Shown here: piece after piece, positions 17,266-37,034 of the stretch | Position numbering within the stretch: position 1 is the first letter of the stretch | Layout: each line of letters starts with the position of its first letter | Assembly: GCA_963781585.1 (NCBI GenBank) | Contig: CAWAGQ010000006.1 | Span: forward strand, 320,001 to 384,000 | Direction: 5' to 3' | Length of the DNA: 64,000 nt | From: an uncultured Gemmatimonadaceae bacterium | Lineage (GTDB): Bacteria; Gemmatimonadota; Gemmatimonadetes; Gemmatimonadales; Gemmatimonadaceae | Made by a program: the position numbers and the translations under genes | The notes under the pieces: generated by a model | Told to the model about the DNA's origin: nothing | Seen by the model: the letters and a program-made list of their open reading frames with translations, nothing else | Database searches by the model: none

Positions 17266-17291
17266 GGCGCCGGGATCGGCGTGACGGCGTG

Positions 17292-20923: not shown

Positions 20924-21200
20924 GACTTCATAATCGGCAACACCTGGCACGACCTGCTGGACGACACGCACACCTTCAGCCTGGCGTCGGGTGACGACAG
21001 CACGGCCTCCGGCACCTTCACCGGAGAGGAGAATCATCCTTCGCTGGGCCTTTTTTCGGATCTCGACGGCACCTTCACCCCGGCAAGCTGTCGTTCACAA
21101 TCCACCGCTCCGCTGGCGATATCGTGCATTCGGGGCGTTCCTGCAGCGCGACACGATGTACGTGTCGTCCAGCGAGGGGGCCTTGAAGATCGTGCGGTAG
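20924..21200 (+). pseudogene. Degraded small beta-rich protein remnant with two frameshifts
   Basis: Protein-like text continues across three frames: DFIIGNTWHD...SDLDGTFT / GKLSFTIHRSAGDIVHSG / AFLQRDTMYVSSSEGALKIVR*, shifting at CCCC (~21080) and GGGG (~21133); no clear start. Confidence 0.4.
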
Positions 21201-21433: not shown

Positions 21434-24400
21434 ATGTTGAAGCGCATGATCTCACTCGCGTCGCGGTCTCGCGCCGCACTCGCTCTCACCTCCCTCCTGG
21501 TCGCCGGAGCGGCGGTGCCGATCAAGCCCGACCTCCTCTCGGGACTGGTCTGGCGCAACGTCGGCCCGTTTCGCGGCGGACGCATCTCCGCGGCGTCAGG
21601 CGTGATCGGCGAACCCGGCACGTACTATGTCGGCACGCCAGCCGGCGGCGTCTGGAAGACCACGAGTGCGGGCCAGGTCTGGTACCCGGTGTTCGACAGA
21701 GTGAAAGACGTGTCGTCGATCGGCTCGATCGAGGTGGCGCCCTCAAACGGCAACGTCATCTACGTGGGTACGGGAGACCAGGTCACCGGTGGCGTCATCA
21801 ATGAAGGCAACGGCGTCTACAAGTCCACCGACGCGGGCGCGACATGGACGCACATGGGCCTCGATTCCAGCAAGCAGATTCCATCCATTGTCGTGGACCC
21901 GCGCAACCCGGATGTGGTCCTGGTTGCCGCGCAGGGCGACCTGCACGCGAAGAGTGACACGCGCGGCGTGTATCGCTCCACCGACGGCGGCGTGACCTGG
22001 ACCAAGACGCTGTTTGTCGCCGATACGATCGGAGTGCAGAAGATCGCGATCGCGTACGACCGACCCGATGTCGTCTTCGCGACGACGATGCGCCACTACA
22101 CCGCACCGCCGCCACCCTCCGGCATCACACCGCCGCCTGCGGGTGGTGGAGGCGGTGGTCGGGGTGGGCGCGGCGGAGCCACCGGACCCACCGGCACGTC
22201 GGTCTACAAGTCCACCGACGGCGGCGTTACATGGAAGGAGCTTATGGGCGGCAGCCTGCCACGCCTCTCGGCCAGCCGCACGTCCATCGCGGTCGCGATG
22301 AATACCGATGCACGCCGCGTGTACCTCATCGACAACGGCGGGCTCCATCGCTCCGATGACGGCGGCGCGACGTGGCGCCAGATGGATCCCACGGACCAGC
22401 GCATCCGCAACGGTCAGGGCGGCTACAACTGCGGCGTGTTCGTGGACCCGACGAATCCCGACGTCGTGTACACCTTCAATACCGCGAGCTACAAGTCGAC
22501 CGACGGCGGCAACACGTTCACCGGATTCCGCGGCGCGCCGGGCGGCGACGATCCGCAGGCGCACTGGATCGATCCCACCAACGGGCAGCGCATTCTGCTC
22601 GGCTACGACCAGGGCGCCATCGTCACCTTCGACGGCGGGCGGAACTGGAGCGACTGGTACAACCAGTCCACCGAGCAGGTCTATCACATCTCCGTCGACA
22701 ACTCGTTCCCGTACTGGATCTACGCCACACAGCAGGATGCGGGCGCCATCCGCCAGCGCAGTCGCGGCGACCTCGGTGAGATCACGCCGCTCGACTGGGG
22801 CCCGGTGAACGGATGGGAGTGGGGGACGATCGTCGCCGACCCGCTCAACTCCAACATCGTGTATGCGAGCGGCTCCGGCATCGTGAAGATCAGCTATCCA
22901 TCGGCACAGTGGATCAACGTGAGCCCGACCGCGGACCCCGGCCTGCGGGCGCGCAGCACCTCGTCGATGCCGCTGGTCTGGGCGCCGTGGAATCAGCACG
23001 AGCTCATCGCCGGCTTCCAGTTCGTCATGTCCACGGTCGACGGCGGCGCGCACTGGACGAAGATCAGCCCTGACCTCGGCTATCCGAAGGGGATGAGTCC
23101 GCCGCCTGATTCCGCGCCACCGACCCCTGGCGGATTTCCTGCGGGGGCCATCGAGACCCTTGCCGCGTCGCCGGTGGGGCGCGGGACGATCTGGGCAGGA
23201 CTCAACAACGGACTGATCAAGGTGACAGGGGACGAGGGAAAAACGTGGGACGATGTGTCGATCCCCGACCTGCCCTTTGCCGCGCGCGCCCTCGTCGAGG
23301 GACTGGATACGTCGCCCACAATGGCGGGCGAGGCGTACGCAGCGATCGACCTGCTGCGGACCGGCGACTTCGCCCCCTACCTGTTCCGCACCAGGGACTT
23401 CGGCAAGACGTGGACGAAGATCACGAACGGCCTGCGCACCGGAGAGGCAGCCGGGAGTTCGGTGCGCGTGGTGCGTGCCGATCCCCGACACACCGGGCTG
23501 CTCTACGCCGGCACCGAGACCGGGATGTACGTGTCGTTCGACGACGGCGACAGCTGGCAGTCGCTGAGCCTCAACCTGCCTAACACCTCGTATCGCGCGA
23601 TCGCGTTCCAGGGGAACGACGTGATCGTCGGCACGTACGGACGCGGCATCTGGATCCTCGACGACGCGGCGGTGCTGCGTCAGATGACGCCGGCGATCGC
23701 CAGCGAGCCGGTGCACCTCTTCAGGCCCGACCCATCGGTACGCGTGCGCCGCAACGTGAACGCCGACACACCGTTTCAACCCGACGTCCCGTACGCGCTC
23801 AACCCGCCCGACGGCATGGTCATCTACTATTGGCTCGGGTCGAAGCCTTCGGGCGACATCACACTCGACGTCGTCGATGCCGACGGTGCGGTGGTCAGGC
23901 ACTACTCGAGCGCGCCGATCACGCCCGTTGCCGAAGCCGCGAAGCCGCCATTCCCGAACTTCTGGCTTGCGCCGCCGAGCCCATTGCCCACGCGCATGGG
24001 GACCAATCGGGTGAGCTGGGATTTCCGTTACGATGATCCTCCGGCGTTCACCCATTCCTTCGAGATCAACGCGAACCCCGGTCAGACTCCCGCGGCGCCG
24101 CAGGGCGCATTCGCGCCGCCCGGCACGTACACCATCCGGCTCACGGTGCAGGGCAAGACGTACTCCGAGACCGCGACGGTCGCCAACGATCCGCGCTCAC
24201 CGGCATCCGCCGCAGAGCTGCGTGCCCAGTCGGCGCTGACGCGCAAGCTCCAGGTGGACGTGACGGCGGCGTGGCAGGCCTACCATCAGGTGGAGGCGAT
24301 GCGGACCGCGCTCGACAGTGTGATGCCGAAGGACACGGCATCGGAGTTGGCGCGCGCGATCAAATCCTTCCGCGCCGAGGTCGACAGCGTGGGTGGAAGG

Positions 24401-24694
24401 GCCGGCGGCGGGCGCGGCTTCGGCGGCCGCGGTGGCGGGCCTCCGCCGACGCCGAACTTCGCCGCCGCGCACAGCCGCCTGCTCGGCGAACTTACCGCGC
24501 AGGAGAACGGTGACTTCGCACCGACCGCGAGTGTGTTGAAAGGATTTGCCGCAGCCTGCGCCGATCTCGGAACGGCCGTTGCGGACTGGCAGGCGATCAA
24601 CGGCAACTACCTCGATGCGCTCAACGCGGTGCTCGCGAAGAACGGAATGAAGTCCGTGCCGCGCGCAGTGCGGGCGATCCATCGGGAATGTTGA
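21434..24694 (+). CDS. Secreted BNR/Asp-box (VPS10/sortilin-like, putative glycosyl hydrolase) protein
   Basis: Signal peptide; WRNVGPFRGGR; repeated (K/R)STDGGxTW Asp-boxes; GTYGRGIWILDD. Confidence 0.88.
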   Translation: MLKRMISLASRSRAALALTSLLVAGAAVPIKPDLLSGLVWRNVGPFRGGRISAASGVIGEPGTYYVGTPAGGVWKTTSAGQVWYPVFDRVKDVSSIGSIEVAPSNGNVIYVGTGDQVTGGVINEGNGVYKSTDAGATWTHMGLDSSKQIPSIVVDPRNPDVVLVAAQGDLHAKSDTRGVYRSTDGGVTWTKTLFVADTIGVQKIAIAYDRPDVVFATTMRHYTAPPPPSGITPPPAGGGGGGRGGRGGATGPTGTSVYKSTDGGVTWKELMGGSLPRLSASRTSIAVAMNTDARRVYLIDNGGLHRSDDGGATWRQMDPTDQRIRNGQGGYNCGVFVDPTNPDVVYTFNTASYKSTDGGNTFTGFRGAPGGDDPQAHWIDPTNGQRILLGYDQGAIVTFDGGRNWSDWYNQSTEQVYHISVDNSFPYWIYATQQDAGAIRQRSRGDLGEITPLDWGPVNGWEWGTIVADPLNSNIVYASGSGIVKISYPSAQWINVSPTADPGLRARSTSSMPLVWAPWNQHELIAGFQFVMSTVDGGAHWTKISPDLGYPKGMSPPPDSAPPTPGGFPAGAIETLAASPVGRGTIWAGLNNGLIKVTGDEGKTWDDVSIPDLPFAARALVEGLDTSPTMAGEAYAAIDLLRTGDFAPYLFRTRDFGKTWTKITNGLRTGEAAGSSVRVVRADPRHTGLLYAGTETGMYVSFDDGDSWQSLSLNLPNTSYRAIAFQGNDVIVGTYGRGIWILDDAAVLRQMTPAIASEPVHLFRPDPSVRVRRNVNADTPFQPDVPYALNPPDGMVIYYWLGSKPSGDITLDVVDADGAVVRHYSSAPITPVAEAAKPPFPNFWLAPPSPLPTRMGTNRVSWDFRYDDPPAFTHSFEINANPGQTPAAPQGAFAPPGTYTIRLTVQGKTYSETATVANDPRSPASAAELRAQSALTRKLQVDVTAAWQAYHQVEAMRTALDSVMPKDTASELARAIKSFRAEVDSVGGRAGGGRGFGGRGGGPPPTPNFAAAHSRLLGELTAQENGDFAPTASVLKGFAAACADLGTAVADWQAINGNYLDALNAVLAKNGMKSVPRAVRAIHREC

Positions 24695-24824
24695 ATGGCT
24701 GTGTTCGCCGGAATTGCTTGCGCTGCGACCTAGCGCAAACAGATTCCGACCGGCGGGACGGCTACCGTTGGCTCCCTCCACAACCGTCAGCAGACCTTCT
24801 CGTGCCCGAGCCGGAGTGACTCAA

Positions 24825-25304
24825 ATGGCAACCAACCAGGCGCCGATCACCAACCCCGCGGACTTTCTCAAACTGTCCGGCGACAAGCTCGACGAAATCT
24901 TCCGCGCGAGTCCTGCTGGTGAGATCCCGACCGGCGAGGGAGAGGGCACGGCCATCATCGCCCCCGGCCACGAGGTGTCGGACGCGATCGCGAAATTCGT
25001 TCACATCTTCACCTGGAAGGGGAAAGTCTTCGAGCGCGATCCCGCGAACCCGGCGCGTGGCTGGCTGAAGAACCGCCTGTTGCTGCTCGGTCATCAGGCG
25101 ATCGTCGCCGAAGTGTTCAAGGGGCCGAGCTGGCTCGATGAGAAGGAGTGCATCGTGCTCGACTACTCGCACACGTCGATCGTCGCGCAGTGGATCCGCG
25201 ACGAGATTCGCCAGGTGAGCCCGGGCGTCTTCCTGGGGATCGTGTACTGGGGGAAGGAAAAACCGCACGCGCACCGGCTCATCCACTTCGCGCTGAGGTT
25301 CTGA
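24825..25304 (+). CDS. Conserved hypothetical protein (WxGK-motif small beta-rich protein)
   Basis: GGAG RBS; LDEIFRAS...WKGKVF...SWLDEKECIVLDYS...IRDEIRQVSPGVFLG; convergent with the heme-enzyme operon. Confidence 0.78.
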   Translation: MATNQAPITNPADFLKLSGDKLDEIFRASPAGEIPTGEGEGTAIIAPGHEVSDAIAKFVHIFTWKGKVFERDPANPARGWLKNRLLLLGHQAIVAEVFKGPSWLDEKECIVLDYSHTSIVAQWIRDEIRQVSPGVFLGIVYWGKEKPHAHRLIHFALRF

Positions 25305-25332
25305 GCGGCAGCATCCGATCCAGGTTCGAACG

Positions 25333-27312
25333 CTATTCCATGGCGAATATCAGAATCCCGTTCGCCGGAATGTTCACCGTGCCCGAACATTGGAGCCCGT
25401 GCATCGGGCGGCCGGTCGCTTCGATCGCGCCGAGATTCCCCACCATCTGCCGGTTCGGCCGCATATCGTAGTAGTCACTGTTCAGCGCCTCGCGCCACCG
25501 GCCGGGACGCGGAAAGCCGAGCTCGTACCGCCAATACGCCGTTTCGCTCAGGCTCGCCACCACCACCACGTCTTCGCCCGCACCCTCCACCCACCGGTGA
25601 AAGGCGAGGACGCGGTTGTCGTTGTGGACGTGAAACGGGTTGACGAGGTCCGAGCGAAGCGCACCAAGCGATCGCCGCGTTCGCACCAGGTCACCGGCAA
25701 ACGCGAGGAAGTCGCGCATCACGGCGTCCACGTCGAGGCCGTCCCACCATACCAGCGTCCCGGGCGCCGCCTCCGGGTTGTCGCTCCAATACTTGTCCTC
25801 GAGGATCTCCTCGCCCATGAACAGCATCGGAATGCCGGGCGCCGACAGCAGCAGACCGGTGGCCACGCGCGCCCGGCTCCGCGCATACCAGCTCCGCGGA
25901 TTGCCTCCATCGGCCAGCCGCGATACTCGCGGCTCGCGGTCTGCGTGGTCGAGGAGCAGGATGTCGTGATTCTCCAGGAACTGTACGGCTCGCCACGCGT
26001 CGGAGAAACCGGGTGGCGCGAGCAGGGCGCCGGCCACCGCATCGAGATCCACCGGCGCCGATGCTCCGTGGGCCGCGGCGCCGACCGCGGCACGCACGCT
26101 TCGCCTGAGCCGATCGGACCACGCAGCGTCGAAGCCAAGCCCGGTGGGAACCGGCTGCACCGCCAGCCAGCGCGAGTCCTTCCAGTATTCCGCGATCTGA
26201 ATGGCCTCCGGCTTCGCCGCGCGAACGCGGCTCGACAGCTCCTGCGCGAAGGTCCAGCCGCCGAAGTCGTCGATCACACTCACCTCGTCGTAACGCAGGC
26301 CGTCGACGTGATACTCGTCGAGGAGGAAAGTCGCGTTGTCCCCGAGAAAGCCGCGCACGCCTGCGTTCCAGAACGCGAACACCAGTCCCCCCGCCCATCC
26401 CTCGTCGGTGAAGAAGAGACTCTCGTTGTTCGACCCGAACGGTCGGCGATCGTAGAAGTAGATGCTGTGATCATCAAACCCGCCGCCGGCATGGTTGTAC
26501 ACAACGTCGCAAATCACCGCCATGCCATTGAGGTGGCACAGGTCGACGACGCACTTGAGCTGATTGGTTGCCGAAGTGATGTCGCCAACAGAGAGCGCGG
26601 GACGGCCATGCTGGCCGAGCAGCCGATTGGCTTCGTGCAGGTAGCGCAGGAGCTCATCCGCGTCACCCACGTGATAGTCCGTCTCCGGCGAGAAGTAGTC
26701 CGTCCCGTTGTATCCCTGACTGAACATCGACGGGAATTCCTGAATCGGCAGCGGCTGAACGGCATTCACGCCCAGATCGCGCAGATACTCGATGCGAAAA
26801 AGGAGGTCGAGGAACCTGCCTCGTCGCGTCTCACGCTGATCTTGTCCAGCGGCATCCGCGGCGTAATAGGTGCCGACGTGCAACTGGTAAACCACCAGAT
26901 CGCGAAACGCCGGCACCCGAAAGCCGTCGTCATGCCAGGGGTAGTCGTTCGACGGCCGTACCAGGCAGTCGCAATCGGGAAACGCCGGGACAGTGCCGAG
27001 CTCCCGCGCATACGGGTCTCGCTTGAAGCCGGTGCTGCCTTCACCGACAATCCAGTACCGGTAGGGTGTGCCGTTCGCGACGCCCGGAACAAATCCCGCC
27101 CACGAGCCGTCGGCGCGGCGGACGAGCAGATCCGCGGCCGCGGGCGCCCACCCCGGTTGTCGCGCTGCCGCCAGCGCGTCGGTGATCACGTAGACCTCGC
27201 GCGCCGATGGCGCCCAGGTTCGAAACGTCGCGCCGCCGTCTCGCAGCGTCGCCCCCATCGGGGTGTGATCGTCCACGTGCTCCTGGGTCACGGCCATGGT
27301 CAATCGTTTCAT
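25333..27312 (-). CDS. GH13 alpha-amylase family enzyme with CBM48 (branching enzyme/malto-oligosyltrehalose trehalohydrolase-like)
   Basis: FRTWAPSA, DPYAR, DVVYNH, DGLRYDEV (nucleophile), IAEYW (acid/base), FLENHD, PMLFMGEE. Start 27312 or 27297. Confidence 0.88.
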   Translation of the reverse strand: MKRLTMAVTQEHVDDHTPMGATLRDGGATFRTWAPSAREVYVITDALAAARQPGWAPAAADLLVRRADGSWAGFVPGVANGTPYRYWIVGEGSTGFKRDPYARELGTVPAFPDCDCLVRPSNDYPWHDDGFRVPAFRDLVVYQLHVGTYYAADAAGQDQRETRRGRFLDLLFRIEYLRDLGVNAVQPLPIQEFPSMFSQGYNGTDYFSPETDYHVGDADELLRYLHEANRLLGQHGRPALSVGDITSATNQLKCVVDLCHLNGMAVICDVVYNHAGGGFDDHSIYFYDRRPFGSNNESLFFTDEGWAGGLVFAFWNAGVRGFLGDNATFLLDEYHVDGLRYDEVSVIDDFGGWTFAQELSSRVRAAKPEAIQIAEYWKDSRWLAVQPVPTGLGFDAAWSDRLRRSVRAAVGAAAHGASAPVDLDAVAGALLAPPGFSDAWRAVQFLENHDILLLDHADREPRVSRLADGGNPRSWYARSRARVATGLLLSAPGIPMLFMGEEILEDKYWSDNPEAAPGTLVWWDGLDVDAVMRDFLAFAGDLVRTRRSLGALRSDLVNPFHVHNDNRVLAFHRWVEGAGEDVVVVASLSETAYWRYELGFPRPGRWREALNSDYYDMRPNRQMVGNLGAIEATGRPMHGLQCSGTVNIPANGILIFAME

Positions 27313-27322
27313 CCGGTTCCCG

Positions 27323-28834
27323 TCAGGCGCCGCGCTCGGTCGCGAAGAACCGCAGCGCCCGAAGTCCCGGCAGGAAGAAGTACGCGCCGCCGCGTACCGT
27401 GATGAATTGCGGGAGGCCGCTCACGCGGCGTGGCGCCGCGCCGTCCTGTGGCATCGTAAAGTCGGCGGTCACCGGACATCCTGGAACCGGGGTACGCCCA
27501 CCCAGCAGCGGATCGCTCTCTCCGCTCATTCCGGCGAACTTGGTGTTCATGATCCACGCGTTCTGCAGAAATTCGAACTGACGCGAGATGTTCGCGTTGA
27601 GGCAGACGAAATACAGTCCGCGCTCGGGATCCGACCCTGACGCGGGGGCAAGCGCCTCAGCGGGAGTGAGTCCGGCTCCATACTCGCGGCCGCGCCGCAG
27701 CAGACGATGGTAACGCACCGATGACGTCAGGTCGTCGTAGAACACCTGCCGGCCGAGACCGAGCATCGCCCGCAGCTTCGCCAGCCCGCTCGGATGACCC
27801 GGGAGATCGGTGTTGCGAGGATTCGCTCTCCGGACGTGCGCGCCGAACGGACAGCCGGTGCCCGCCGGATCCCCGTCGAACGTGAACTGATTGAGCCGGA
27901 TCGCATCGGGTTTGGTGCCGATGCCGGGAATCGGCTGCTCCTGAACCGGCACGAGCGGCTCGCCCGCCCGGGTACGCCCCACGAACGCCGCCGCGAGCTG
28001 GTCGGCGCGCTCGAAATTGCCACCGCTCTGCTGAGCGACGAACTGCCAGAACCCCCGCACGTCCTGCCGGAGCTGGCGCATAACGAGATACGTCCCGTTG
28101 CGGCCGACGTCCTTCTGTGACGGCGCGTCCTGGGCGGAGAGCAGATCGGCGGCCGCCGGATCGGCATCGACGACTGGTCGATCGGTGTACTTGCCGTATT
28201 CATTGCGATAGCCGAGCAGAAACTCTCCGAGCGCGACGACGTTGGTGTAGTCGAGCTGCGCGCGGAGGGGATCCCGCGCCTGCTGCCAGTCGATCTCGGG
28301 CTGGCTGATTCCGTCACTGAAGCCGAACGGCTCGAGCCCACCGAGATCGCCGGTGTCCAGCCGGCGCAGCAGGTCGAACGCATCGGTCCAGGTGCTTCCC
28401 TGCGCGCGATGCATGAACGCGTCGACGCCACCATTCCCTGGCTCGGCGAAGAACATCACGACCAGGTGCGGCACTCGCGATTGGCCGCCCGCCCCCCACT
28501 CCCACCGGGCCGGCGCATTGCTCCCGACGTCGCCCAGCCGGCGCGCGCGATTGTCCGCCGCCATCCCGCCGAGAAACTCGGCGGAGAAGCCGCCAACTAC
28601 GGACCAGGGTACGCCGAGCGCCTGCAGCCCCGCCGCGGTGAGCGCGACCTGCAACGCTGTCGATGGCGGGGGAGTCACCGTCACCGCGCTGGTGACCGGA
28701 GCGGATCTGAGCCATGCGCGCGCGGCCGCCGGATTCCTGACACGCGCCAGCAGGTACGCGGCCTGGGTCAGCTTCCCGTGGCCGAAGCGCACGATGCCCT
28801 GCACGTCGGCAAAGTCCAGGTCGCCGCGCGTCAC
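27323..28834 (-). CDS. DyP-type peroxidase
   Basis: DVQG, EPFGFSDGISQP (GxxDG), CPFGAHVRRANPR (proximal His), LLRRGREYG, GLYF...ISRQFEFLQ; GTG overlaps the upstream stop. Confidence 0.92.
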   Translation of the reverse strand: MTRGDLDFADVQGIVRFGHGKLTQAAYLLARVRNPAAARAWLRSAPVTSAVTVTPPPSTALQVALTAAGLQALGVPWSVVGGFSAEFLGGMAADNRARRLGDVGSNAPARWEWGAGGQSRVPHLVVMFFAEPGNGGVDAFMHRAQGSTWTDAFDLLRRLDTGDLGGLEPFGFSDGISQPEIDWQQARDPLRAQLDYTNVVALGEFLLGYRNEYGKYTDRPVVDADPAAADLLSAQDAPSQKDVGRNGTYLVMRQLRQDVRGFWQFVAQQSGGNFERADQLAAAFVGRTRAGEPLVPVQEQPIPGIGTKPDAIRLNQFTFDGDPAGTGCPFGAHVRRANPRNTDLPGHPSGLAKLRAMLGLGRQVFYDDLTSSVRYHRLLRRGREYGAGLTPAEALAPASGSDPERGLYFVCLNANISRQFEFLQNAWIMNTKFAGMSGESDPLLGGRTPVPGCPVTADFTMPQDGAAPRRVSGLPQFITVRGGAYFFLPGLRALRFFATERGA

Positions 28835-30132
28835 AGGAGCGCCACCCATGCGCGCGCCTCGGCCTCGCTCAGCGCCGGCGATTCCAGCCCGCGGCGAATT
28901 CCGCCGTTCCGTTCCAGGTCGACCGCCGTCATCCCCGGATACGCCTTGTACCAGACCTGGGTCGGCACCTGATGGCGGCGCAGGTACTCCTTGAACTTGC
29001 GCTCGTCGCTGCACCCGTCGAGCAGCAGCCACCTGGTTCGCGGGTATCCGATGCCTCCGCTGAACGCGATGTTGAGCCCGTACCCGACCTTGTTGATGAA
29101 GTCGTCCATGTAGCTCTCGAGGCTTCCGTCGTAGTTGCTGAAGAACACCGCGCGCTTCCTGCCGTCGAGAAAGACCCAGCGCGCGAAGTGGATCGTCCGC
29201 ACCCGGGCCAGCCCGCCGTGGGTGAAGACGTGGCGGGCCGCGTAATCGATCAGGAAGAACGCGGCGATCGCCATCCAGAGTCGCGCGATCCCGGGCTTCA
29301 GGCTCCCCATCGCCGTGAACTGATTGGTGACGTCGTGATCCTCCAGATCGGCCAGATCATCCGAGTATTGCATGTCGACGCGGGAACAGAGCTCCGGATC
29401 CGTCCGCTCCAGCGATCGCAGACGAAGGAGCGTGACGATCGCCACCGGTATGAGGACCGGAGACGCGATCAGCAGCGCCACCGGGACGCCGATCAGGTGC
29501 ATCAGGTTGCGCACACGCCAGCCAGCCGGCGTTGGTTCGTCTGGTGAGAGGCTGAGGCGTCCGGCTGCGCGCTCACCGTTGACGTACTGCCGGAGCGCCG
29601 CGTGGATCGCCGTCGCCGGCAGTCCGGCCAGCGTTTGCGCGTTGCTTTCCACGAAGCGGTCGATGGCCGCGCGCAGCGCGGCTTCCTCACGGACCCGGCG
29701 CACCGTTCGGCCGACCCAATTCACATAGTTGGCCGCCGACGGCACGGTGTGCGCCCGCATCCACCGCAACAGATCGGTGTCGGGCGTGAATCCCTCGCAG
29801 CACGCGAACAGCGAGCGCAATCCATCGGGCGCCACCCGGGCGGCCTGTCGCAGAAACGCATCGGCCTCGCCGTCGATGTCGCCGAGGAACGCGAGGTACA
29901 ACGGATAGGAGGCCGGGGTCAGACCGTGCGCGCGCACGTCGTCGACCGTCCGGTCGTCGATGATCAGGAATCGCGCGACGTGCACGGTGTCGAACTTCGC
30001 GAACGGCACCAGCCCGTTGTCCGGGTTCACGGATCCCGGCCCGTCGTTCATCGACGCCAGCAGCTGGCGAAGGGCCGCCTCGCGCCGCGGATCGATCGGC
30101 GCCAGCACCATGAACTGCGATTGCGGAGTCAT
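28831..30132 (-). CDS. Uncharacterised membrane-associated protein with internally duplicated H-x-A-R domains
   Basis: TVHVARF...FLGDIDG and TIHFARW...FFSNYDG, separated by a hydrophobic segment; ATG 30132 lies 5 nt after the catalase-like stop. Confidence 0.8.
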   Translation of the reverse strand: MTPQSQFMVLAPIDPRREAALRQLLASMNDGPGSVNPDNGLVPFAKFDTVHVARFLIIDDRTVDDVRAHGLTPASYPLYLAFLGDIDGEADAFLRQAARVAPDGLRSLFACCEGFTPDTDLLRWMRAHTVPSAANYVNWVGRTVRRVREEAALRAAIDRFVESNAQTLAGLPATAIHAALRQYVNGERAAGRLSLSPDEPTPAGWRVRNLMHLIGVPVALLIASPVLIPVAIVTLLRLRSLERTDPELCSRVDMQYSDDLADLEDHDVTNQFTAMGSLKPGIARLWMAIAAFFLIDYAARHVFTHGGLARVRTIHFARWVFLDGRKRAVFFSNYDGSLESYMDDFINKVGYGLNIAFSGGIGYPRTRWLLLDGCSDERKFKEYLRRHQVPTQVWYKAYPGMTAVDLERNGGIRRGLESPALSEAEARAWVALL

Positions 30133-30137
30133 CGCCG

Positions 30138-31412
30138 TTACTCGAAAACCTCGTCCCCGTCGGGCTCGTAATGCGGCACCGCGTTCATCGAGTGCCGCAA
30201 CTGCGACAAGGTCCAGTACATGCGCTTGCGCGCGCGACTCTGATTCCCCAACGGCCGATGCTCCGCAATCGTGTGCCACGGATTGTACGACAGGCGTCTC
30301 GCGAAATCCATTTGCGCCCGTGAGGTGAAGGTCTGCGGCGGAATGCGCAGCGTCGCGGCCGACACGCGCGGTGACAACCGCTCGGGCCACAGCACCGCGT
30401 TGTTCTCGATCGGCATCAGGTACGGGTCGGTCTGCCGCTGCAGGCGGATGTCGAACTCCACCGGTCCGCGGTCGAGAGCCGCGACCATGGCGTCGCGCAG
30501 GTAGTCGTCAGGCGGACGGAACGGGAGGCGCGGGATGCGGGTGCGCCGGTTCGACTTCGGCCACACCGAGTACTGCATGGCCTGGCCTTCGCCCAGCAGA
30601 TACGGCACGCAACTGAAGTACGGCGCCTCGAACGGACTGCTCTGCGTCTTGATCCAGAGCGCCTGCATGATGCCGTCAAGGACATGCGGCCGATGGAAGT
30701 TGAGGAAGTAGAAGATCTGCGCGTTCCGGAGGCTCTCGATCTGCAGCTGCGCGTTCGCCTCGGTGTCGGGCGTGACGAAGGTCGGCGTCGACACGCCGAA
30801 CACGTCCAGGGTGAACCTCTCGTCGTCCATCAGCTTCGGGCCAGGCACGCCCATCAGCTTGATGCTGATGCTCATGAAGCCGACGTCGTCGATGTCCGGG
30901 GTCACGTACGGCCCGGGCCCCGAGAATCGGACCCAGGCGCGGTAGGTCTTCGGCTCGGCGTAGATGCCGTGCCGGAACGCCGGCGGCAAATCGGCGTGCA
31001 CAATGAACTCTCCGCGCACGATGCCATGGGTCTTGGTGTTCCCCCCGCGCTCGAAGCCTCCGGGCTTCCAGAGTCCGCGCATCTGCTTCTCGAACGTCGC
31101 GATGATCGAGTCGAGAAACGCCTCCTCGTTCGGAAGCGGCTTCTCCTCGGCGATCCGCAGGCCCTCGTTGGGACGCTTCGCGTTGATCAGCGCGGTGACC
31201 ACGCGCGCGATCGGATCGCGTAGCACGGCGTCGAAGGCCGGGCGAAAGAACGGGTCGAACCGGCGCTCGAAATGGAGGAGCGCCATTGATGCGCTGGCCA
31301 GCCAGTTCCGCAAGGCCGAACCGGTGTTCGGCGGCGGGATGGGCCGACTCCTGTTGGAATCCACGGGCGCCATCGATGAAGGCCCGCCAGATCCGCCGGC
31401 GCCTTCCGTCAT
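30138..31412 (-). CDS. Catalase-related hemoprotein (short catalase/cAOS-like fold)
   Basis: RGGNTKTHGIVRGEF, AWVRFS, SIKLMGV, YFSCVPY, PIENNAVLW, LSYNPWH, HRPLG...RARKRMY (proximal R-x3-Y); ATG overlaps the P450 stop. Confidence 0.85.
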   Translation of the reverse strand: MTEGAGGSGGPSSMAPVDSNRSRPIPPPNTGSALRNWLASASMALLHFERRFDPFFRPAFDAVLRDPIARVVTALINAKRPNEGLRIAEEKPLPNEEAFLDSIIATFEKQMRGLWKPGGFERGGNTKTHGIVRGEFIVHADLPPAFRHGIYAEPKTYRAWVRFSGPGPYVTPDIDDVGFMSISIKLMGVPGPKLMDDERFTLDVFGVSTPTFVTPDTEANAQLQIESLRNAQIFYFLNFHRPHVLDGIMQALWIKTQSSPFEAPYFSCVPYLLGEGQAMQYSVWPKSNRRTRIPRLPFRPPDDYLRDAMVAALDRGPVEFDIRLQRQTDPYLMPIENNAVLWPERLSPRVSAATLRIPPQTFTSRAQMDFARRLSYNPWHTIAEHRPLGNQSRARKRMYWTLSQLRHSMNAVPHYEPDGDEVFE

Positions 31413-32710
31413 CGCCCGGGTTCTCCGGCCGCACCAACGCCGAACGGTGCGTCCCACTTCGGGAACGAGATCGGCAACGGATCGCGGGTCAGCCGATCCT
31501 GGCGCGCCGAGAGCCCGAGCTCGCCGAGCTGTATCGCCGCGGCCGCCTTGCACACGAACAGGATGAGATCCATGCCCGGACAGGCGCGCGGTCCCCGCAG
31601 GAACAGGTTCGACGCCGCCGCGGCGGCGTCGCGCGGCGCGACAAGCCACCGCTCCGGATGAAACCCGTGGACATTCGGCCCGAGGCGATCGTCGCGCTGC
31701 AGCAGCGGGAAGTAGTGCACGATCTCGCGACCAGCGGGTCCCGCATGAAACGTCCGGGTGACCGGCGGGAAGAGGCGTCCCGTCTCCAGGAGGCACGCCT
31801 CGAGATAGACGAGCCGCGCGACGGTCCCGGCGCGATCGGCCGGACCGGCGCTCCGAAATTCCTCGAGTACGCGCGCGTGCACGCCGGGGCGCGAGGTCAC
31901 CATGGCGAGTGTTCGTGCGAGCAGGTCGGTGCCCGAGCCCGTGAACGTGAACATCCAGTGCGGGATCTGTTGCAGGAGCAGGTTGCGATCGGCGTCCGGC
32001 GCCAGCCTGCGTCCCAGAGCGACGAGTGTTTGTTCGCCGCCTCCGTCTCCCGCCTGCTCCCACTTGCGACCAAGCAGCGCATACAGCCGCTCGCGGCGAC
32101 CACGGTACGAGAACCCGAACAGTTTGCGTCGTATCGGGCTCTGCACCGCCGCGAACAATGCCGTGACGTCGGCGGCCGGATCCGGTTGGCCCCTGGGAAC
32201 GTCACCGACCACGATCTGCACCATCGCCCGTCCCATCGCGGCGCGCACCGCCTCGATGTTGGGGACCGGCCGCGCGAATGCAGCCCGCACGTGCTCCAGG
32301 ATCGTTTTCGCGAATTGGTGCGGATGACCGGTCTCCAGCACGTGTTCGTTGAACGGCCGCAGGAGCAACCAGGATTCTCCGTCGGCGATCGTGAGCGCGC
32401 CGGGAGCGAGGAACGCCATCGCGCTCGCCTTGAGCGCTCCTGCCGGATATCCTTCGAAACCGGGCCGGCCGGCGAGCACGCTTTCGGAGCGCTCCGGATC
32501 CGTGACGAGCTCGACGGTCCGCCCGAAGATGCCGAACTCCGGGTCCGCGCCGCCGGGGCGGTTCGTGAGGGCGCGCGCCCACTCGCACACGGCCGAACCT
32601 GCGTCGGCGCGCCTTCCCCGAAGCGCGTTCGCGGCCAGCCTCACGCCCAGCCGCAGTGCGTCGAGCACACCCGCTCTCGCGGGGGCGCGCGCCGCTCCAC
32701 CGCTGGTCAC
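31409..32710 (-). CDS. Cytochrome P450 (atypical I-helix)
   Basis: ExxR (LETGRL), FHPERW, heme loop FLRGPRACPG; GTG start 1 nt after the dioxygenase stop. Confidence 0.88.
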   Translation of the reverse strand: MTSGGAARAPARAGVLDALRLGVRLAANALRGRRADAGSAVCEWARALTNRPGGADPEFGIFGRTVELVTDPERSESVLAGRPGFEGYPAGALKASAMAFLAPGALTIADGESWLLLRPFNEHVLETGHPHQFAKTILEHVRAAFARPVPNIEAVRAAMGRAMVQIVVGDVPRGQPDPAADVTALFAAVQSPIRRKLFGFSYRGRRERLYALLGRKWEQAGDGGGEQTLVALGRRLAPDADRNLLLQQIPHWMFTFTGSGTDLLARTLAMVTSRPGVHARVLEEFRSAGPADRAGTVARLVYLEACLLETGRLFPPVTRTFHAGPAGREIVHYFPLLQRDDRLGPNVHGFHPERWLVAPRDAAAAASNLFLRGPRACPGMDLILFVCKAAAAIQLGELGLSARQDRLTRDPLPISFPKWDAPFGVGAAGEPGR

Positions 32711-32711
32711 G

Positions 32712-35606
32712 CTACGGCTTCCGGAAAGCCGAATCCGCCTCCGCGCCCTTTCGGGCCTTCCATTGAAGCGAGTAGTAGCTCCCGCGATCGCGGCCCCAGG
32801 GATCGAAGGCGTTCACCACGCCGCTCAGCTCGTCCTTGAGCTCCGGCATCGTCCGCAGCAGGATCCGCTTGAGCGGACTCACGACCTCATCGTGTCCGTT
32901 CGGCCGCCCAGCCTCCTTCACCACACCGGTCGGTCCGTTGTTGGTGACCCACTCCACGCCGAGGCTCGTGTAGAACTCGGGTCGAAAGCTCGACGTGAAG
33001 AAGCGGTCGCTGAACAGCCGCCGCGACGCGTTGATGATGAACACGCTGAACTGGGTTTCGGAGATCGCAAATCCGTGCGGGCGCGCGGCCTCGGCGAGAA
33101 AACCCACCACCACGTCGAGGTCCTCGATGTTGTCCACCACGCTGCCGTCGGGGTGACCGAGACAATCGGTGACCGGCTTGCCGTCGATATTCTGCGCCGC
33201 CGTGATCGGCTTCGAGTCGTCGCACTGATGCGTCCCGTAGATGTCCCTGAGCTTCTTCACATATCCCTGCTCGCGCTGAATCTCGAGCGAATCGGCGGTG
33301 TGCGGGTCGAGGCGCCGATCGACGAAGTCGTCGAAGCTGGTCAGGCTCCTGAGGCCGTACTGCCGGCGGAATTCGTTGAACCGCGGAACGCCGCGTTCCC
33401 GGTCGCGGATGATGTCGAGCGCCGCCACGTCGATCTGGCCCGTCTTGCTGGCGGTGATTCTCGGCATGGGCAGGTTCTGGAGGAACTGCGGATGATTGCC
33501 CAGGGTGAGCGCGCCAAGGCGTTGACGCCCCATCGTGACCGCCCAGTTGGAGAGACCGCCCTCGTGCTCGTTCCGGGTCGCGAGCCCGCGGAACGTCGAG
33601 ACCACCGGCACCATCCGCTCCACGGTGTTCGGTTCGTGCCGGTCGCGGAACTCGAGGAGGTCGGGGACCAGGGGGTGAAGCCGGTAGACCGTGATGAACT
33701 CCTCGGGGAAGTTGAACGGCGAGCCGAAATGATTCACGCCGCCGTTCACATCGTCCGGGTTCCTGATGTCCCAGATGTCCTTCGCGTTCGGGTCGAGGCC
33801 AAGAAAGTTGCCGTGGTTGGCGTACTTGTGGCTTCCCAGGCCCATGATCCCGGCGCCCGACGCGAATACGGAATACCACGTGGTCTGGTCGGATTCCTTC
33901 ACGGACTTGCCCTTGAGGTCCACCGCCACCTTGTCGAGCACCCGGGAGACGAGGTTGTCGCTTCTGATCAGCCCGAACCAGTTGGCGTTCATCGCGGTGT
34001 ACAACGGTTCGTCGTACAGCAGCTGCGTGGTCCACTCAATGGTGTGGATCTTCGCGATCTCCGCGGCCACGACGAGCCGGGCCGCCTGGTACAGCTGCTC
34101 CGGCGTCACGTCGCGATTTCGACTCACGAGTTCCGGATGTGCCGGATCGCGAAGGCCCGAGTCGCCATCGGGGTCGGCGGCCGTGCGCCGGCGGAATTCG
34201 TCGACGAACTGGTTGTGCTCGCGCGCGAACACGTTGTGCAGGAAGCTGAGCCCGATCGACCAGTTGTCGGGAAAGGCCACCGATTCCTGCCCGGCCCACT
34301 GGGGATTGATCGGATCGCCCGCGGCGAACGTCGGGAGATACCCCTGGCGATCGCCCTCGGCGGTGTCGCCCGGGATCCGCACCATCAGCAGCTTCGCCGA
34401 ATCGCCTGGATCCCGCTTCACCCGGTGCGCCGACCGATCGCTGTATCCGTAGATCTGCGACGCATCCCACCACGCCGTGTTGGTGTTGCGCGTGGTCTCC
34501 GGTGCGCGCGCGAGATACGCCTGGCCGTTGTGCTCGAACGTGGGTGCCGGCGTGTTTTGCGCGATGATCGCCTTGTCCATCCGGTCGCCCGGACGGCATC
34601 CGAGCGCCGTCACCTCGGCTGGTGTGAGATCGCGCACCGAGTCTCCGTCACGGGTGGTCTTGCAGCCGACCTCCATGGTCGCCGGGTCGTTCTGGCCCTC
34701 GTCCAGGTGCGAGAACCAGTCGTGCGTCATGAACTGGATCCAGAACGCCGCAATGACGTTGAAGAACGGCGCCTTGATGTAGTCGCAGTGCGCGTCGGGA
34801 CCCGAATTGGTTCCCGCCTGGCAGCGCTCCGGCGCCGACTGCTGGCGCGTGAACAACTCGCGGCTTATCACTTGGGGATCGGGCCGCAGGAGTCCGATGC
34901 GGTCCCCATGCCGGTTCCTGACGAGCGGGTTCGCACCGAGAAGCGGAAACGTTTCGTCGAACGGCACGTTGCGCGCGAACAGGGTATTGGTCGAACCCAT
35001 CAGCGGGTTCTTGATGTCGTTGCAGATCCCGCTAAGAGTGCGATGGCGGATGAGCTCCCCGCTGCACACCTGAGGGCCACCGCCGCCCACGTCCTTGTAG
35101 TGCGGATCGCTCGGCGGAAGGCGCATCGCCGGCCAGACCTTGACCGAGCGGCCATGGATCGTACCGAGACCGCTGACGTAATCCTGATACGTGTTGTTGT
35201 CGAACAGGTTGAACTTGATCATCTCGATGCGCTGGTACTCGAGATCGAGCAGCGCCCCGTCGAGCCCACGGCCGTTTCGGGACAGATGGCCGAAGAGCGG
35301 TGAGCTGGATCGTGATGTCGAGTCGCCGGCGCCCCAATAGTTCGACCAGTCAACCCAGGGCGTCCCCCGCTGGGCCACGGCCCTCTCCCCGCCACGGCAG
35401 AGGGCCGTGAATTCCTTCACCTTGCCGAGGAACCGGTCCGCCCGGTTGTCCGCGATCGGGCGGAATCCCGAGACGGCCAGCTGCCGGCAGCCACGCAGCG
35501 ATCGCACCTCGGCACGGAGATTCGGCGACACGGCGATTATCGCGGCCGGGACGACGACCAGAACACCGATGAGAACGATGAGCGTGCGCGTGATTCGACG
35601 CTTCAT
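32712..35606 (-). CDS. Heme peroxidase-cyclooxygenase superfamily protein, fatty-acid alpha-dioxygenase-like, with N-terminal membrane anchor/signal
   Basis: WIQFMTHDW, WWDASQIYG, AKIHTIEWT, EEFITVYRLHPL (catalytic Tyr plus proximal His), RDRERGVPRFNEFRR, GFAISET, SRRLFSDRFFT; GGAGAGG RBS. Confidence 0.9.
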   Translation of the reverse strand: MKRRITRTLIVLIGVLVVVPAAIIAVSPNLRAEVRSLRGCRQLAVSGFRPIADNRADRFLGKVKEFTALCRGGERAVAQRGTPWVDWSNYWGAGDSTSRSSSPLFGHLSRNGRGLDGALLDLEYQRIEMIKFNLFDNNTYQDYVSGLGTIHGRSVKVWPAMRLPPSDPHYKDVGGGGPQVCSGELIRHRTLSGICNDIKNPLMGSTNTLFARNVPFDETFPLLGANPLVRNRHGDRIGLLRPDPQVISRELFTRQQSAPERCQAGTNSGPDAHCDYIKAPFFNVIAAFWIQFMTHDWFSHLDEGQNDPATMEVGCKTTRDGDSVRDLTPAEVTALGCRPGDRMDKAIIAQNTPAPTFEHNGQAYLARAPETTRNTNTAWWDASQIYGYSDRSAHRVKRDPGDSAKLLMVRIPGDTAEGDRQGYLPTFAAGDPINPQWAGQESVAFPDNWSIGLSFLHNVFAREHNQFVDEFRRRTAADPDGDSGLRDPAHPELVSRNRDVTPEQLYQAARLVVAAEIAKIHTIEWTTQLLYDEPLYTAMNANWFGLIRSDNLVSRVLDKVAVDLKGKSVKESDQTTWYSVFASGAGIMGLGSHKYANHGNFLGLDPNAKDIWDIRNPDDVNGGVNHFGSPFNFPEEFITVYRLHPLVPDLLEFRDRHEPNTVERMVPVVSTFRGLATRNEHEGGLSNWAVTMGRQRLGALTLGNHPQFLQNLPMPRITASKTGQIDVAALDIIRDRERGVPRFNEFRRQYGLRSLTSFDDFVDRRLDPHTADSLEIQREQGYVKKLRDIYGTHQCDDSKPITAAQNIDGKPVTDCLGHPDGSVVDNIEDLDVVVGFLAEAARPHGFAISETQFSVFIINASRRLFSDRFFTSSFRPEFYTSLGVEWVTNNGPTGVVKEAGRPNGHDEVVSPLKRILLRTMPELKDELSGVVNAFDPWGRDRGSYYSLQWKARKGAEADSAFRKP

Positions 35607-35884
35607 GGATTGCCTCTCCGTACGGGGGTTGGTGCAATCCGATCACATGGCTCGCGGGACGACGGGTCGGTTCGCGCCAGCCGAGGTCAGCAAACGGTGT
35701 GATCTTACATGCCGAATGAAGAAAACGCGATTCGCGTGATCACCGGTCGTCAGAGGATGCGAACTCCGTGCCTTGGTGCGGTGGCGTGCGGGCAAGGTCG
35801 AGCTCGCCGGTTGGAGATCTACTGCTGCACAGAGGTGCCTGTCGAGTTACAGCTGAGCCGGCCACGCGAAGGCTGGTGCTGCCC

Positions 35885-35926
35885 GCTGATGGCTGACCGC
35901 TGAGAACTGAGCGCTGTCGACTGACG
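35885..35926 (+). repeat. Degenerate 7-bp tandem repeat (RCTGWNN x6)
   Basis: GCTGATG GCTGACC GCTGAGA ACTGAGC GCTGTCG ACTGACG in the intergenic region. Confidence 0.7.
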
Positions 35927-36050
35927 GCACGCACGGCAGTCTTTGGGTCTTGCCGCCGAGCCCGTGATTACACAAAGTGTGCTCGTTGGGACGTGGTTCG
36001 GTCACGGGAACAGTTCCGGAGGATTTCGGCGACGCTGCAGCACAGCATCC

Positions 36051-37034
36051 GTGCCACAGCCTGAAAAGCCGCCCGCCAAGCGGGTCGAAAGCCTCGGGGA
36101 CTACGTCGCCTTGTGGCCGCTGCTCGGGTTGTTCATCGGAGGCGGCGCGTGGCTCAAGGCGCACGCGCACGGATTCGTGGAGTCGGGCGGACTGGTGCTT
36201 GCGGCACTGGGTGGCGCGGGATTCCTCTGGAACCTGGTGCCGGAAGAGACGCGCAAGAAAGCACGTCTCGACTTCGGGCAGCACCTGAAGTCGCGGCGCC
36301 TGGCCCGAGGGGCGTGGTGGGCGTTAGGCGTGGCGCTGGTGGTGTCGATGTTTGTGTCGAGCGTGCACGTGACGGCGGCGAAGGCCGGAGCGCCGGTCCG
36401 GGTCTTCCGGATGAACGGCTCGGTTGACGGTGCGAGCAGCGTAGGCGGGGAACGCGAGCTTTCCAGTTCGGAACCGTCGGCGAGTTTTCTGGTGTTGATC
36501 CCACCGATTGGGCGGCGCCAGTGGCTGCGGACGGAGACGGAGGAGCGATCACGGGAGTTCCGCCTGTTCCCGTTCCTTCCGCGGACGCTTCTCTATCCGG
36601 AGGACTTCAGTGCGAACATCGCCGCGGAGGTGCTTCCGATGGGAAGCTTCATTCCGGACTTCGGGGGGCCCCAGCCGCTCCGGCTGCTGGTGCGGGCGGA
36701 CGGAGGGCGAGGTGACACCTTGGCGGTCGATTCTCTGGTCCGGATCGAAACGCTGGTCCTCTCGGTGGCGGGGGCGGCGCATCCCGACACCGCGCTGGCG
36801 CGACCGCGATGGGTTGCGGCGGTGCGCCGCCAGTTCGGTGTCGATGAACGCGACGCGGAGGATCAGGTGAGGGACTGGATGCGCTTCCGGGAGGTGCGAA
36901 CCCGGCGCGCATTGAAGGCGGGCGAGACGATCGGCATCGTCGTGCTTTCGCCGGTCGGGGACACGGTGGCGGCGGACACGGTCACTCTTTCGGCGGTCTT
37001 TTCCGATGTCATACTCCGACGTCGCACGAACTAG
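36051..37034 (+). CDS. Hypothetical membrane protein (about 3 TM plus extracytoplasmic beta domains)
   Basis: Three hydrophobic segments followed by a beta-rich region; first gene of an overlapping four-gene run; start uncertain. Confidence 0.7.
   Translation: MPQPEKPPAKRVESLGDYVALWPLLGLFIGGGAWLKAHAHGFVESGGLVLAALGGAGFLWNLVPEETRKKARLDFGQHLKSRRLARGAWWALGVALVVSMFVSSVHVTAAKAGAPVRVFRMNGSVDGASSVGGERELSSSEPSASFLVLIPPIGRRQWLRTETEERSREFRLFPFLPRTLLYPEDFSANIAAEVLPMGSFIPDFGGPQPLRLLVRADGGRGDTLAVDSLVRIETLVLSVAGAAHPDTALARPRWVAAVRRQFGVDERDAEDQVRDWMRFREVRTRRALKAGETIGIVVLSPVGDTVAADTVTLSAVFSDVILRRRTN

Follow-up and report, generated by a model that had tools for sequence, protein, structure and literature searches.

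A Gemmatimonadaceae operon joins a dioxygenase–P450 module to a widespread catalase-fold–DyP cassette and may encode a pathway for oxidised fatty acids

Which of the haem enzymes encoded side by side in one bacterial operon act together, and on what? The question is raised by a 64,000-nucleotide stretch of DNA from an uncultured Gemmatimonadaceae bacterium (GenBank assembly GCA_963781585.1, contig CAWAGQ010000006.1, positions 320,001 to 384,000; the whole stretch is called the window below), in which positions 25333-35606 carry six genes on the minus strand. In reading order they encode an alpha-dioxygenase-type haem enzyme (DOX), a P450, a catalase-fold haem protein (catl), a protein with a predicted membrane anchor (memb), a DyP-type peroxidase (DyP) and a GH13 protein. 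A sequence-only reading of this DNA had taken the six genes as one candidate lipid-hydroperoxide pathway. We find instead that the operon consists of two mobile modules, DOX with P450 and catl with memb and DyP, the second having a further conserved partner (fam3), together with GH13 as a passenger. We give about even chances to the reading that the operon joins these two horizontally mobile modules into one membrane-located pathway for oxidised fatty acids.

The layout of the six genes was reproduced as first described: from DOX through P450, catl, memb and DyP to GH13, the junctions are 1, -4 (ATGA), 5, -4 (GTGA) and 10 nt, and no redox-partner gene lies within the operon, as had also been noted. 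The G+C content at third codon positions (GC3) is 0.80-0.88 across all six frames and 0.47-0.53 in the longer upstream extensions of the open reading frames (ORFs); because of this drop, the shorter starts are taken as the coding ones. Two starts are less certain, since catl orthologues mostly begin at the equivalent of residue 17 and the first ~40 residues of P450 are unconserved among orthologues; a catl start at Met14 would replace the ATGA overlap with P450 by a gap of ~35 nt. A promoter scan of 24500-36300 returned no promoter-like site, and a terminator scan of the same interval returned four terminator-like sites against a chance expectation of 6.5, which is uninformative. The G+C content is 0.65-0.70 across the whole window, with no base-composition island. 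The source genome (5.7 Mb in 17 contigs, 93.5% complete, 7.2% contamination; the window lies on contig 6) and that of a sister species, the one other species of the genus searched, are the only 2 of 41 related genomes in which DOX was found, and the same holds for catl. The sister species retains the whole gene arrangement, with 97% identity to the window in GH13 and 84-95% in the other genes.

The catl protein (30138-31412, minus strand; 424 aa) has relatives in 454 species-level genomes, in addition to over 6111 clusters of metagenome proteins, and the search of the full library gave 3907 representative ones. Neighbourhoods in genomes were counted in the best 80 of the 454 genome matches, which come from Pseudomonadota, Cyanobacteria, Acidobacteriota, Verrucomicrobiota, Nitrospira, Binatia, Polyangiaceae and one 'Patescibacteria' bin; cultured carriers of the cassette include Variovorax, Rhodanobacter, Leptolyngbya and Microseira. 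Both memb (28831-30132, minus strand; 433 aa) and DyP (27323-28834, minus strand; 503 aa) lie beside catl in 69 of the 80 loci, in the order memb-DyP-catl in 39, catl-memb-DyP in 29 and another order in one, and memb is directly upstream of the DyP gene in all 69, with a median estimated gap of about -1 nt. Nine of the 11 loci that do not have both genes are cut near the gene, and the other two (L031 and L062) have full flanks. Identity to the window proteins over these loci, which span at least 7 phyla, is 72-83% for catl (median 78%, n = 80), against 35-69% for memb (median 52%) and 37-69% for DyP (median 53%); 135 of 408 catl positions are invariant in 65 sequences.

The trio has a conserved partner in fam3, whose window copy (24825-25304, plus strand; 159 aa) lies beyond the range considered at first. 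It starts at an ATG at 24825 with GGAG upstream, converges on GH13 at a distance of 28 nt and is 56% identical to the family member in L003. As a 146-aa protein, fam3 is found in 71 of the 80 genome loci, and it also stands beside dioxygenase-P450 pairs in L091, L092 and L095-L098. A search with 28 members gave no Pfam match at E ≤ 10, and the family has no PDB sequence match. In L096 a single ORF (8335-10440, minus strand) runs from fam3 through a transmembrane helix into a RoxA-like di-haem cytochrome c domain, an order by which fam3 would face the cytoplasm, attached to a periplasmic haem enzyme that spans the membrane. A like fusion considered in L098 was rejected, the frames being different and the genes merely adjacent, so that L096 holds the only true one. 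Directly upstream of fam3 and on the same strand, the window encodes a 1086-aa BNR/Sortilin-Vps10 repeat protein (21434-24694, plus strand), with relatives just upstream of catl in L036 (35% identity) and upstream of the fam3-RoxA fusion in L096 (54%); with three occurrences among ~120 loci, it may be an occasional accessory.

The DOX-P450 module was followed in 41 metagenome loci from a scan with the window P450 (31409-32710, minus strand; 433 aa), a set that includes the near-duplicate contigs L092/L093 and L101/L102/L109. A dioxygenase gene lies directly upstream of the P450 gene on the same strand in 22 of the 41 loci and elsewhere in the locus in two more; where at least 300 bp upstream of P450 are available (n = 30), 21 loci have an adjacent dioxygenase and seven have none. 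The pairing holds down to 28% identity in the dioxygenase and 27% in the P450, and the relative in L120, 27% identical, still scores 1.4e-21 as a P450. Several neighbours of the pair are suggestive of lipid metabolism. A patatin-like gene precedes DOX and P450 in L096, where two RoxA-like di-haem genes face them; an aldehyde dehydrogenase gene follows DOX and P450 in L119 and L120, the latter with an alpha/beta hydrolase upstream; and in L101 a fatty-acid desaturase, a luciferase-like monooxygenase and an alpha/beta hydrolase lie near the pair. An apparent P450-aldehyde dehydrogenase fusion in L119 was rejected, as the long ORF is in another frame than the P450 match and the genes are adjacent. 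A search among longer proteins found no fused dioxygenase-P450 or other long form of the window P450, although such a search is weak evidence.

Only in this genus and in nine contigs from soil were the two modules found joined. Where a metagenome contig extends at least 300 bp beyond P450 (33 loci), catl follows in nine; memb and DyP come after catl in L088 and L091, and memb is at the cut end of L089. The expectation that homologues of the six genes would be co-located elsewhere is thus borne out for two separate modules and fails for the six as one unit. The new element is that the dioxygenase-P450 module and the trio cassette are physically joined, which gives the cassette a candidate substrate class.

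GH13 (25333-27312, minus strand; 659 aa, with CBM48) belongs to neither module. It matches PF02922 (CBM_48), PF00128 (Alpha-amylase) and PF02806 (Alpha-amylase_C) and is distantly GlgB/TreZ-like (GlgB 8zqa at 1.1e-25, TreZ at 8e-20), its NCBIfam equivalog scores being far below cutoffs; its GH13 conserved regions (DVVYNH, GLRYDE, EYW and FLENHD) are intact. These regions, the shared strand and the short gap after DyP would suit the idea that all six genes make one glycosylated or cross-linked lipid product. However, GH13 is absent from all 80 genome loci found with catl and all 41 metagenome loci found with P450, and in L091, the closest relative with complete ends, fam3 comes directly after the DyP gene; we regard a six-gene product as the least credible of the readings weighed here, and the proposed glycosylated lipid is left unsupported by the absence of GH13 from every other locus. 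Because GH13 is 97% identical in the sister species as against 84-95% for the other genes, it is best seen as having been inserted recently, and only in this genus, between DyP and fam3; it is a passenger.

From the folds, residues, gene linkage and fusions that we observe, a substrate, products, a topology and a chemistry for the trio can be proposed. DOX (32712-35606, minus strand; 964 aa) matches the animal-haem-peroxidase domain PF03098 at 6.8e-68, and its nearest solved relatives are the alpha-dioxygenases (alpha-DOX) of rice (4kvj, 7.8e-60) and Arabidopsis (4hhr, 9.5e-55); lactoperoxidase and myeloperoxidase come next in the PDB at 1e-6 or worse, and no cyclooxygenase (COX) is among the matches to solved structures at E ≤ 1e-3. 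Its MTHDW, AKIHTIEW, VYRLH and ASRRL motifs align to MVHDW, AKVHTIDW, VYRMH and ASRRL of rice 4kvj, in which, by numbering inferred from the chain offset, lie His157 (distal), His311, Tyr379 (catalytic), His382 (proximal) and Arg559; every alignable alpha-dioxygenase catalytic residue is retained, and all four motifs and all ten cysteines are kept in the 8 of 8 full-length orthologues (58-78% identity). We take the equivalents of His311 and Arg559 to be the fatty-acid-binding residues of alpha-DOX. Residues 8-26 form an N-terminal signal or anchor helix, and the N-terminus is hydrophobic in each orthologue and lipobox-like in some; judged by its sequence, DOX is probably exported and disulfide-bonded. 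The accessible part of PMC8720084 describes the catalytic Tyr and the proximal His as conserved across all alpha-DOX sequences and places such enzymes in five bacterial phyla, two cyanobacterial ones being active. In the first step of the proposed pathway, the exported, disulfide-rich DOX would oxygenate a free fatty acid, bound through the ASRRL arginines, by way of a tyrosyl radical on the Tyr of VYRLH, giving a hydroperoxide, most likely the 2-hydroperoxide.

The P450 scores 27.6 bits against PF00067 (cutoff 22.8) and, in 31 aligned sequences, conserves the Cys pocket FLRGPRACPG and the ExxR motif (ETGR), with a family-specific PHWMF motif that is invariant. Its best solved relatives, CYP24A1 (0.0064), P450 BM3 and CYP4B1, are remote. 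In the second step it would act self-sufficiently, taking the hydroperoxide or an aldehyde breakdown product in the manner of CYP74, prostacyclin synthase or the P450 part of fungal DOX-CYP enzymes; an aldehyde is a likely product, as an aldehyde dehydrogenase gene follows the pair in distant relatives.

The fold of catl was established by profile and predicted structure, as catl has no Pfam or NCBIfam match and its single sequence matches coral allene oxide synthase (cAOS) only at E = 0.15. A wider-relative profile (A1), built from 56 catl relatives, matches the M. avium 33-kDa protein 3e4w at 3.3e-16, cAOS 1u5u at 8.4e-9 and catalases from 1.8e-8 in the PDB, and 34 catalase-family sequences at ≤ 0.01. 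The AlphaFold2 (AF2) model of catl, with a predicted local distance difference test (pLDDT) score of 93.1, matches 3e4y at 1.3e-13 (TM 0.76 on the target) and 1u5u at 9.5e-13 in Foldseek, and includes an extra long N-terminal helix (residues 33-79). The label 'catalase-like' is therefore right at the level of the fold. On what is presumed to be the proximal side, all 65 orthologues keep R395-x-x-x-Y399, whose two residues occur in 53 and 54 of the 56 wider relatives; the equivalence of this motif to the proximal residues of solved chains comes from motif and fold, as the hidden Markov model (HMM) alignments to those chains end before this region. The family splits into an Asn-type subfamily, at least 40% identical to the window protein and including it, and a His-type of ~340 aa, 32-38% identical, some members of which pass Pfam Catalase.

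Natural fusions tie catl to its neighbours. DyP is fused to catl in P0125 (917 aa), P0127 and P0149, and catl to memb in P0123 and P0264; His-type relatives are fused to DyP (P0248, P0250 and P0196), to An_peroxidase (P0241) and to RoxA-like cytochrome c (P0204, P0215, P0219 and P0256).

DyP has 8re3 as its best solved relative (2.3e-46) and matches TIGR01413 at 2.2e-22. Its FSDGIS, GAHVRR and LRRGREYG align to the corresponding motifs of 8re3, and D174, H333, R380 and R381 are invariant in 34 sequences; we take these motifs to supply the GxxDG Asp, the proximal His and the distal Arg. With DyP placed by 8re3, the dioxygenase by PF03098, the P450 by PF00067 and catl by profile and predicted structure, the four haem folds named in the sequence-only reading all stand. 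In the sister species the DyP gene (L086 13341-14839) aligns as three pieces in different frames, the other genes being intact; the split could reflect frameshifts, decay or an assembly error in a metagenome-assembled genome.

For memb, which has no Pfam, NCBIfam or PDB sequence match, the AF2 model (pLDDT 87.6) is a tandem ferredoxin-like ABM fold, that is, a dimeric alpha+beta barrel. Foldseek matches it to 9lmn at 3.3e-6, and VIA gives Z scores of 13.1 to 9lmn (223 residues, root-mean-square deviation 4.0), 10.9 to 9ltx and 9.0 to 3mcs, and two tandem-ABM 'putative monooxygenases' score ~9; with no sequence-family match, this is an assignment at the level of the fold. The protein carries two HFAR motifs. 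A helix at 203-244 lies between the two halves, with a core of 27 hydrophobic residues (about 211-237) and three prolines, and because the two halves pack as one barrel in the model, the helix would be a monotopic or re-entrant anchor and not a membrane-spanning one. An origin of memb as a DyP paralogue was considered and rejected: BLASTP gives only E 0.024 over 35 residues, and the merging of the two families in neighbour clustering came from one L053 ORF spanning both genes.

Complex prediction for DyP and memb gave 0.86 (0.89, 0.86 and 0.83 in three runs) against 0.00 for the best control. Among 157 solved complexes 116 attain that mark, as do 2 of 215 mismatched pairs, a rough comparison in that custom alignments were used. 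The runs agree in at least 90% of contacts, with partner pLDDT of at least 89, and the predicted interface, in which DyP 417-432 (invariant RQFEF) meets memb 335-348 (invariant YDGSLESYMDDF), leaves the hydrophobic helix of memb free. On these models memb is predicted to be both the membrane anchor and a binding partner of DyP. What had earlier been described as a membrane protein is, by its modelled fold, a tandem ABM-fold protein predicted to bind DyP. In the third step of the proposed pathway, catl, DyP, memb and the 159-aa fam3 protein would assemble at the membrane's cytoplasmic face into a complex that consumes or further converts the lipophilic peroxide.

What surrounds the cassette elsewhere is consistent with a role in which its supply of substrate varies. 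A protein of ~850-900 aa with CxxCH motifs (fam2), which also has a weak Cytochrome_CBB3 match and a short RoxA-like motif, is encoded in 58 of the 80 genome loci, a GMC oxidoreductase in 47 and a patatin-like protein in eight; a P450 gene is in none. An_peroxidase is a real match in nine, of which three are alpha-DOX-like (58-61% identity) and six cyanobacterial (27-30%). The COX-like dioxygenase adjoins the cassette in those six cyanobacterial loci (L005, L008, L013, L026, L076 and L078), and in L078 all six genes are on one strand. Because the trio is coupled elsewhere to GMC and a c-type cytochrome protein or to a COX-like dioxygenase, it can be read as an unchanging core that uses peroxide and is supplied by oxygenating modules that can be exchanged. 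In its fullest form this reading would have catl, memb, DyP and fam3 make up a multi-haem machine of a new kind, bound to the membrane and gene-transferred across at least 7 phyla, that uses organic or lipid peroxides from interchangeable modules (alpha-DOX with P450; COX-like; c-type cytochrome with GMC), with catl as a new catalytic class in the catalase fold and the operon as the first natural 'wiring diagram' from which the substrate class of the cassette can be named. We put this forward tentatively, as a possibility that is more doubtful than not.

In the six cyanobacterial loci, the genes for the COX-like dioxygenase and fam3 are always separated by one for a 307-311-aa protein (fam12) that matches no Pfam family. 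By eye this protein has a RGFAPGLAIKW-like motif, and a catalase-related identity suggested by this found no support (hhalign probability 0.6%; nothing in Pfam). In L023 (1973-9663), a CoA-transferase, an LCAT-like alpha/beta hydrolase, a caspase-domain protein and a CHAT-TPR protein are encoded upstream of a catl-memb-DyP-DOX arrangement, and a TIR-domain protein downstream of it.

The frequency of GMC beside the cassette also bears on a possible role in the oxidation of lignin or other aromatic polymers, with DyP acting alongside a GMC partner of the aryl-alcohol-oxidase type, since lignin oxidation in fungi and bacteria is classically linked to DyP paired with a GMC oxidoreductase. Against this, DyP, catl and memb have no signal peptide, the cassette is present in cyanobacteria and Nitrospira, and no cassette-type GMC gene lies near the operon, only generic GMC genes being found elsewhere in the window's genome; a lignin-directed role strikes us as very improbable. 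fam2 was likewise not found in the window's genome (93.5% complete) with the L003 protein as query.

Several observations weigh against one pathway through DOX, P450 and the trio. Among the solved structures matched by the P450 at E ≤ 1 there is no CYP74 or prostacyclin synthase, so that its likeness to hydroperoxide-transforming P450s comes from gene linkage and not from membership of those clans in sequence. DOX looks periplasmic, with its signal- or lipobox-like N-terminus and five conserved Cys pairs, and there is no signal peptide in P450, catl or DyP; any coupling of DOX to these partners therefore needs its product to cross the membrane. The modules are far oftener apart than together, a dioxygenase lying near catl in 9 of the 80 genome loci, and in L092 DOX, P450 and catl are followed by fam3, with neither memb nor DyP. 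The lipid-hydroperoxide logic of the sequence-only reading is upheld in one respect, by the patatin-like (L096), aldehyde dehydrogenase (L119 and L120) and desaturase (L101) genes beside the pair, and strained in another, by the probable export of DOX away from partners that have no signal peptide.

The separation of the modules in most loci (also by the 9 of 33 count of catl after P450) and the difference in compartment would fit two unrelated systems on a shared transcript: DOX and P450 for fatty-acid alpha-oxidation or aldehyde formation, and the catl-memb-DyP-fam3 set acting on a different lipophilic substrate. Set against this are the recurrence of the module junction in several soil contigs (63-69% P450 identity) and in two species of the genus, the presence of fam3 with both modules, the independent cyanobacterial link in which a COX-like dioxygenase stands beside the cassette in six loci, and the fusion of His-type catl relatives to An_peroxidase. 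We consider two unrelated systems rather unlikely, though a reading to be taken seriously, and continue to work with the single pathway for oxidised fatty acids.

A further difficulty for that pathway is the distal pocket of catl. In HMM alignments, Asn125 stands at the distal-His column of catalases and cAOS in 65 of 65 cassette orthologues, and Ser208 at the position of the distal Asn (cAOS Asn137), again in 65 of 65; the residue before Asn125 is Gly, as against Thr or Val in distal-His proteins. The same column is His in 48 of the 56 wider relatives. The position of His129 holds His in 41 orthologues and Gln in 24, so this histidine is not essential. For cAOS, the accessible part of PMC5617202 gives H67, T66 and N137 as distal residues and Y353 as the proximal ligand. 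With the distal His replaced by Asn and the distal Asn by Ser, the chemistry of cAOS and hydroperoxide lyase (HPL) is not transferable to catl, and by its sequence catl is not a canonical hydroperoxide-transforming member of the catalase-related proteins. In the absence of the distal His that defines chemistry of the coral cAOS type, catl is not straightforwardly a second hydroperoxide-transforming partner, as had been proposed. An Asn-type distal pocket need not be incompatible with peroxide chemistry, by analogy only, since O-O scission in prostacyclin synthase and in plant AOS involves an Asn at the haem, according to the accessible part of PMC13049297.

Two other roles for the trio can be considered. 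It could serve in peroxide defence, as a membrane-tethered peroxidase and a catalase-like protein that shield the membrane against hydrogen peroxide or lipid hydroperoxides made by neighbouring oxygenases and oxidases; the two peroxide-reactive folds (DyP and catl) and the frequency of potential peroxide producers next to the cassette (GMC oxidoreductase in 47 of 80 loci, or a dioxygenase) would suit such a role. Yet catl is without the distal His needed for catalase turnover, its extreme conservation (median 78% across phyla) and dedicated partners favour a specific reaction, and no oxidative-stress regulator is conserved near the cassette; we think defence unlikely. EfeB-type DyPs and IsdG act on haem iron, and the trio could accordingly handle haem or iron, with DyP as an EfeB-like deferrochelatase, memb as an IsdG-like haem degrader and catl as a haem store or chaperone. 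The ABM fold of memb is common to IsdG and MhuD (Z 5.8), DyP has a weak match to TIGR01412 deferrochelatase (9e-4), and catl combines a putative Tyr ligand with the lack of a distal base. The conserved neighbours are nevertheless oxygenases and lipases, with no transporter, TonB receptor or iron regulator among them, and DyP is closest to class-V enzymes such as 8re3 and not to EfeB, which makes a role in haem or iron handling highly unlikely.

Further from the operon, the window encodes a 1165-aa tricorn-type protease (17430-20927, minus strand; PD40 repeats, Tricorn C1, PDZ and S41) and a TetR regulator (16582-17361). An 855-aa protein with a papain-family C1 peptidase domain (39419-41986, plus strand) and a 757-aa NrfD-type membrane protein (43389-45662, minus strand) are unrelated to the operon.

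These results matter because bacterial oxylipin biology is barely charted: the characterised cases that we met are the Nostoc 10S-dioxygenase and lyase, a few cyanobacterial alpha-dioxygenases and the Pseudomonas di-haem diol synthase. In this soil bacterium, the operon suggests a so far unstudied route by which bacteria may make or handle oxidised lipids. It adds evidence that, in soil and marine bacteria, enzymes of the alpha-dioxygenase type are accompanied by a P450 of their own; this arrangement is the split equivalent of fungal DOX-CYP enzymes and of the logic of animal COX-to-prostacyclin/thromboxane-synthase pathways, and it bears on the origin of such pairings. It also provides a functional handle on a very widespread cassette, three of whose four proteins have no Pfam family, and points to a catalase-fold haem protein without a distal His. 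The proposals are testable in the cultured carriers Variovorax, Rhodanobacter, Leptolyngbya and Microseira and, for the joined operon, with synthetic genes.

In a literature search whose coverage left out most subscription journals, we found no published cluster of a catalase-related protein, a DyP and an ABM anchor and no published bacterial alpha-DOX-P450 gene pair. Among known systems, the oleate diol synthase operon of Pseudomonas aeruginosa, which reportedly consists of two di-haem cytochrome c peroxidase-like oxygenases, is also a bacterial haem-enzyme operon that makes oxylipins, and the cassette is elsewhere coupled to fam2 or RoxA-like di-haem proteins; however, the enzyme folds differ, and the window has no c-type cytochrome gene of the fam2 kind.

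Coral AOS (1u5u, 3dy5) and the M. avium 33-kDa protein (3e4w, 3e4y) share with catl the catalase core fold and, going by motif and fold, probably the Arg and Tyr of the proximal side. Distal His67, Thr66 and Asn137 of cAOS (PMC5617202, accessible part) are replaced in catl by Asn, Gly and Ser, and catl differs from catalase-related haemoproteins in its long N-terminal helix and far stronger conservation. The alpha-DOX enzymes of plants (rice 4KVJ, Arabidopsis 4HHR) and cyanobacteria (CalDOX and LepDOX, in the accessible part of PMC8720084) resemble DOX in the distal His, catalytic Tyr, proximal His and His311/Arg559 equivalents, whereas DOX is longer by ~340 residues (through the signal or anchor at its N-terminus, a Cys-rich region in the N-terminal part and three insertions) and has ten conserved Cys and a dedicated P450 neighbour.

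Closer in logic are the fungal DOX-CYP fusions (Ppo, linoleate diol synthases, DOX-AOS and DOX-EAS), in which, as far as the accessible parts of PMC13049297, PMC9524268 and PMC11719350 describe them, the dioxygenase acts first and the P450 then acts on the hydroperoxide. In the operon the two are separate genes, the dioxygenase is nearer to plant alpha-DOX and probably exported, and the P450 has an RxC Cys pocket and its own PHWMF motif, in contrast to the HxC pocket given for the fungal partners in those sources. One cyanobacterial haem dioxygenase acts together with a catalase-related hydroperoxide lyase that is the product of a separate gene (PMC13049297, accessible part). The pair reported for Nostoc punctiforme, linoleate 10S-dioxygenase and catalase-related 10S-hydroperoxide lyase, is like the operon in that a peroxidase-cyclooxygenase dioxygenase is encoded with a catalase-fold protein. 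The operon departs from that pair in having a dioxygenase of alpha-DOX and not COX type (964 aa versus 542 aa), a P450 between the two genes, an Asn-type catl and, in addition, a DyP, an ABM anchor and the 159-aa protein.

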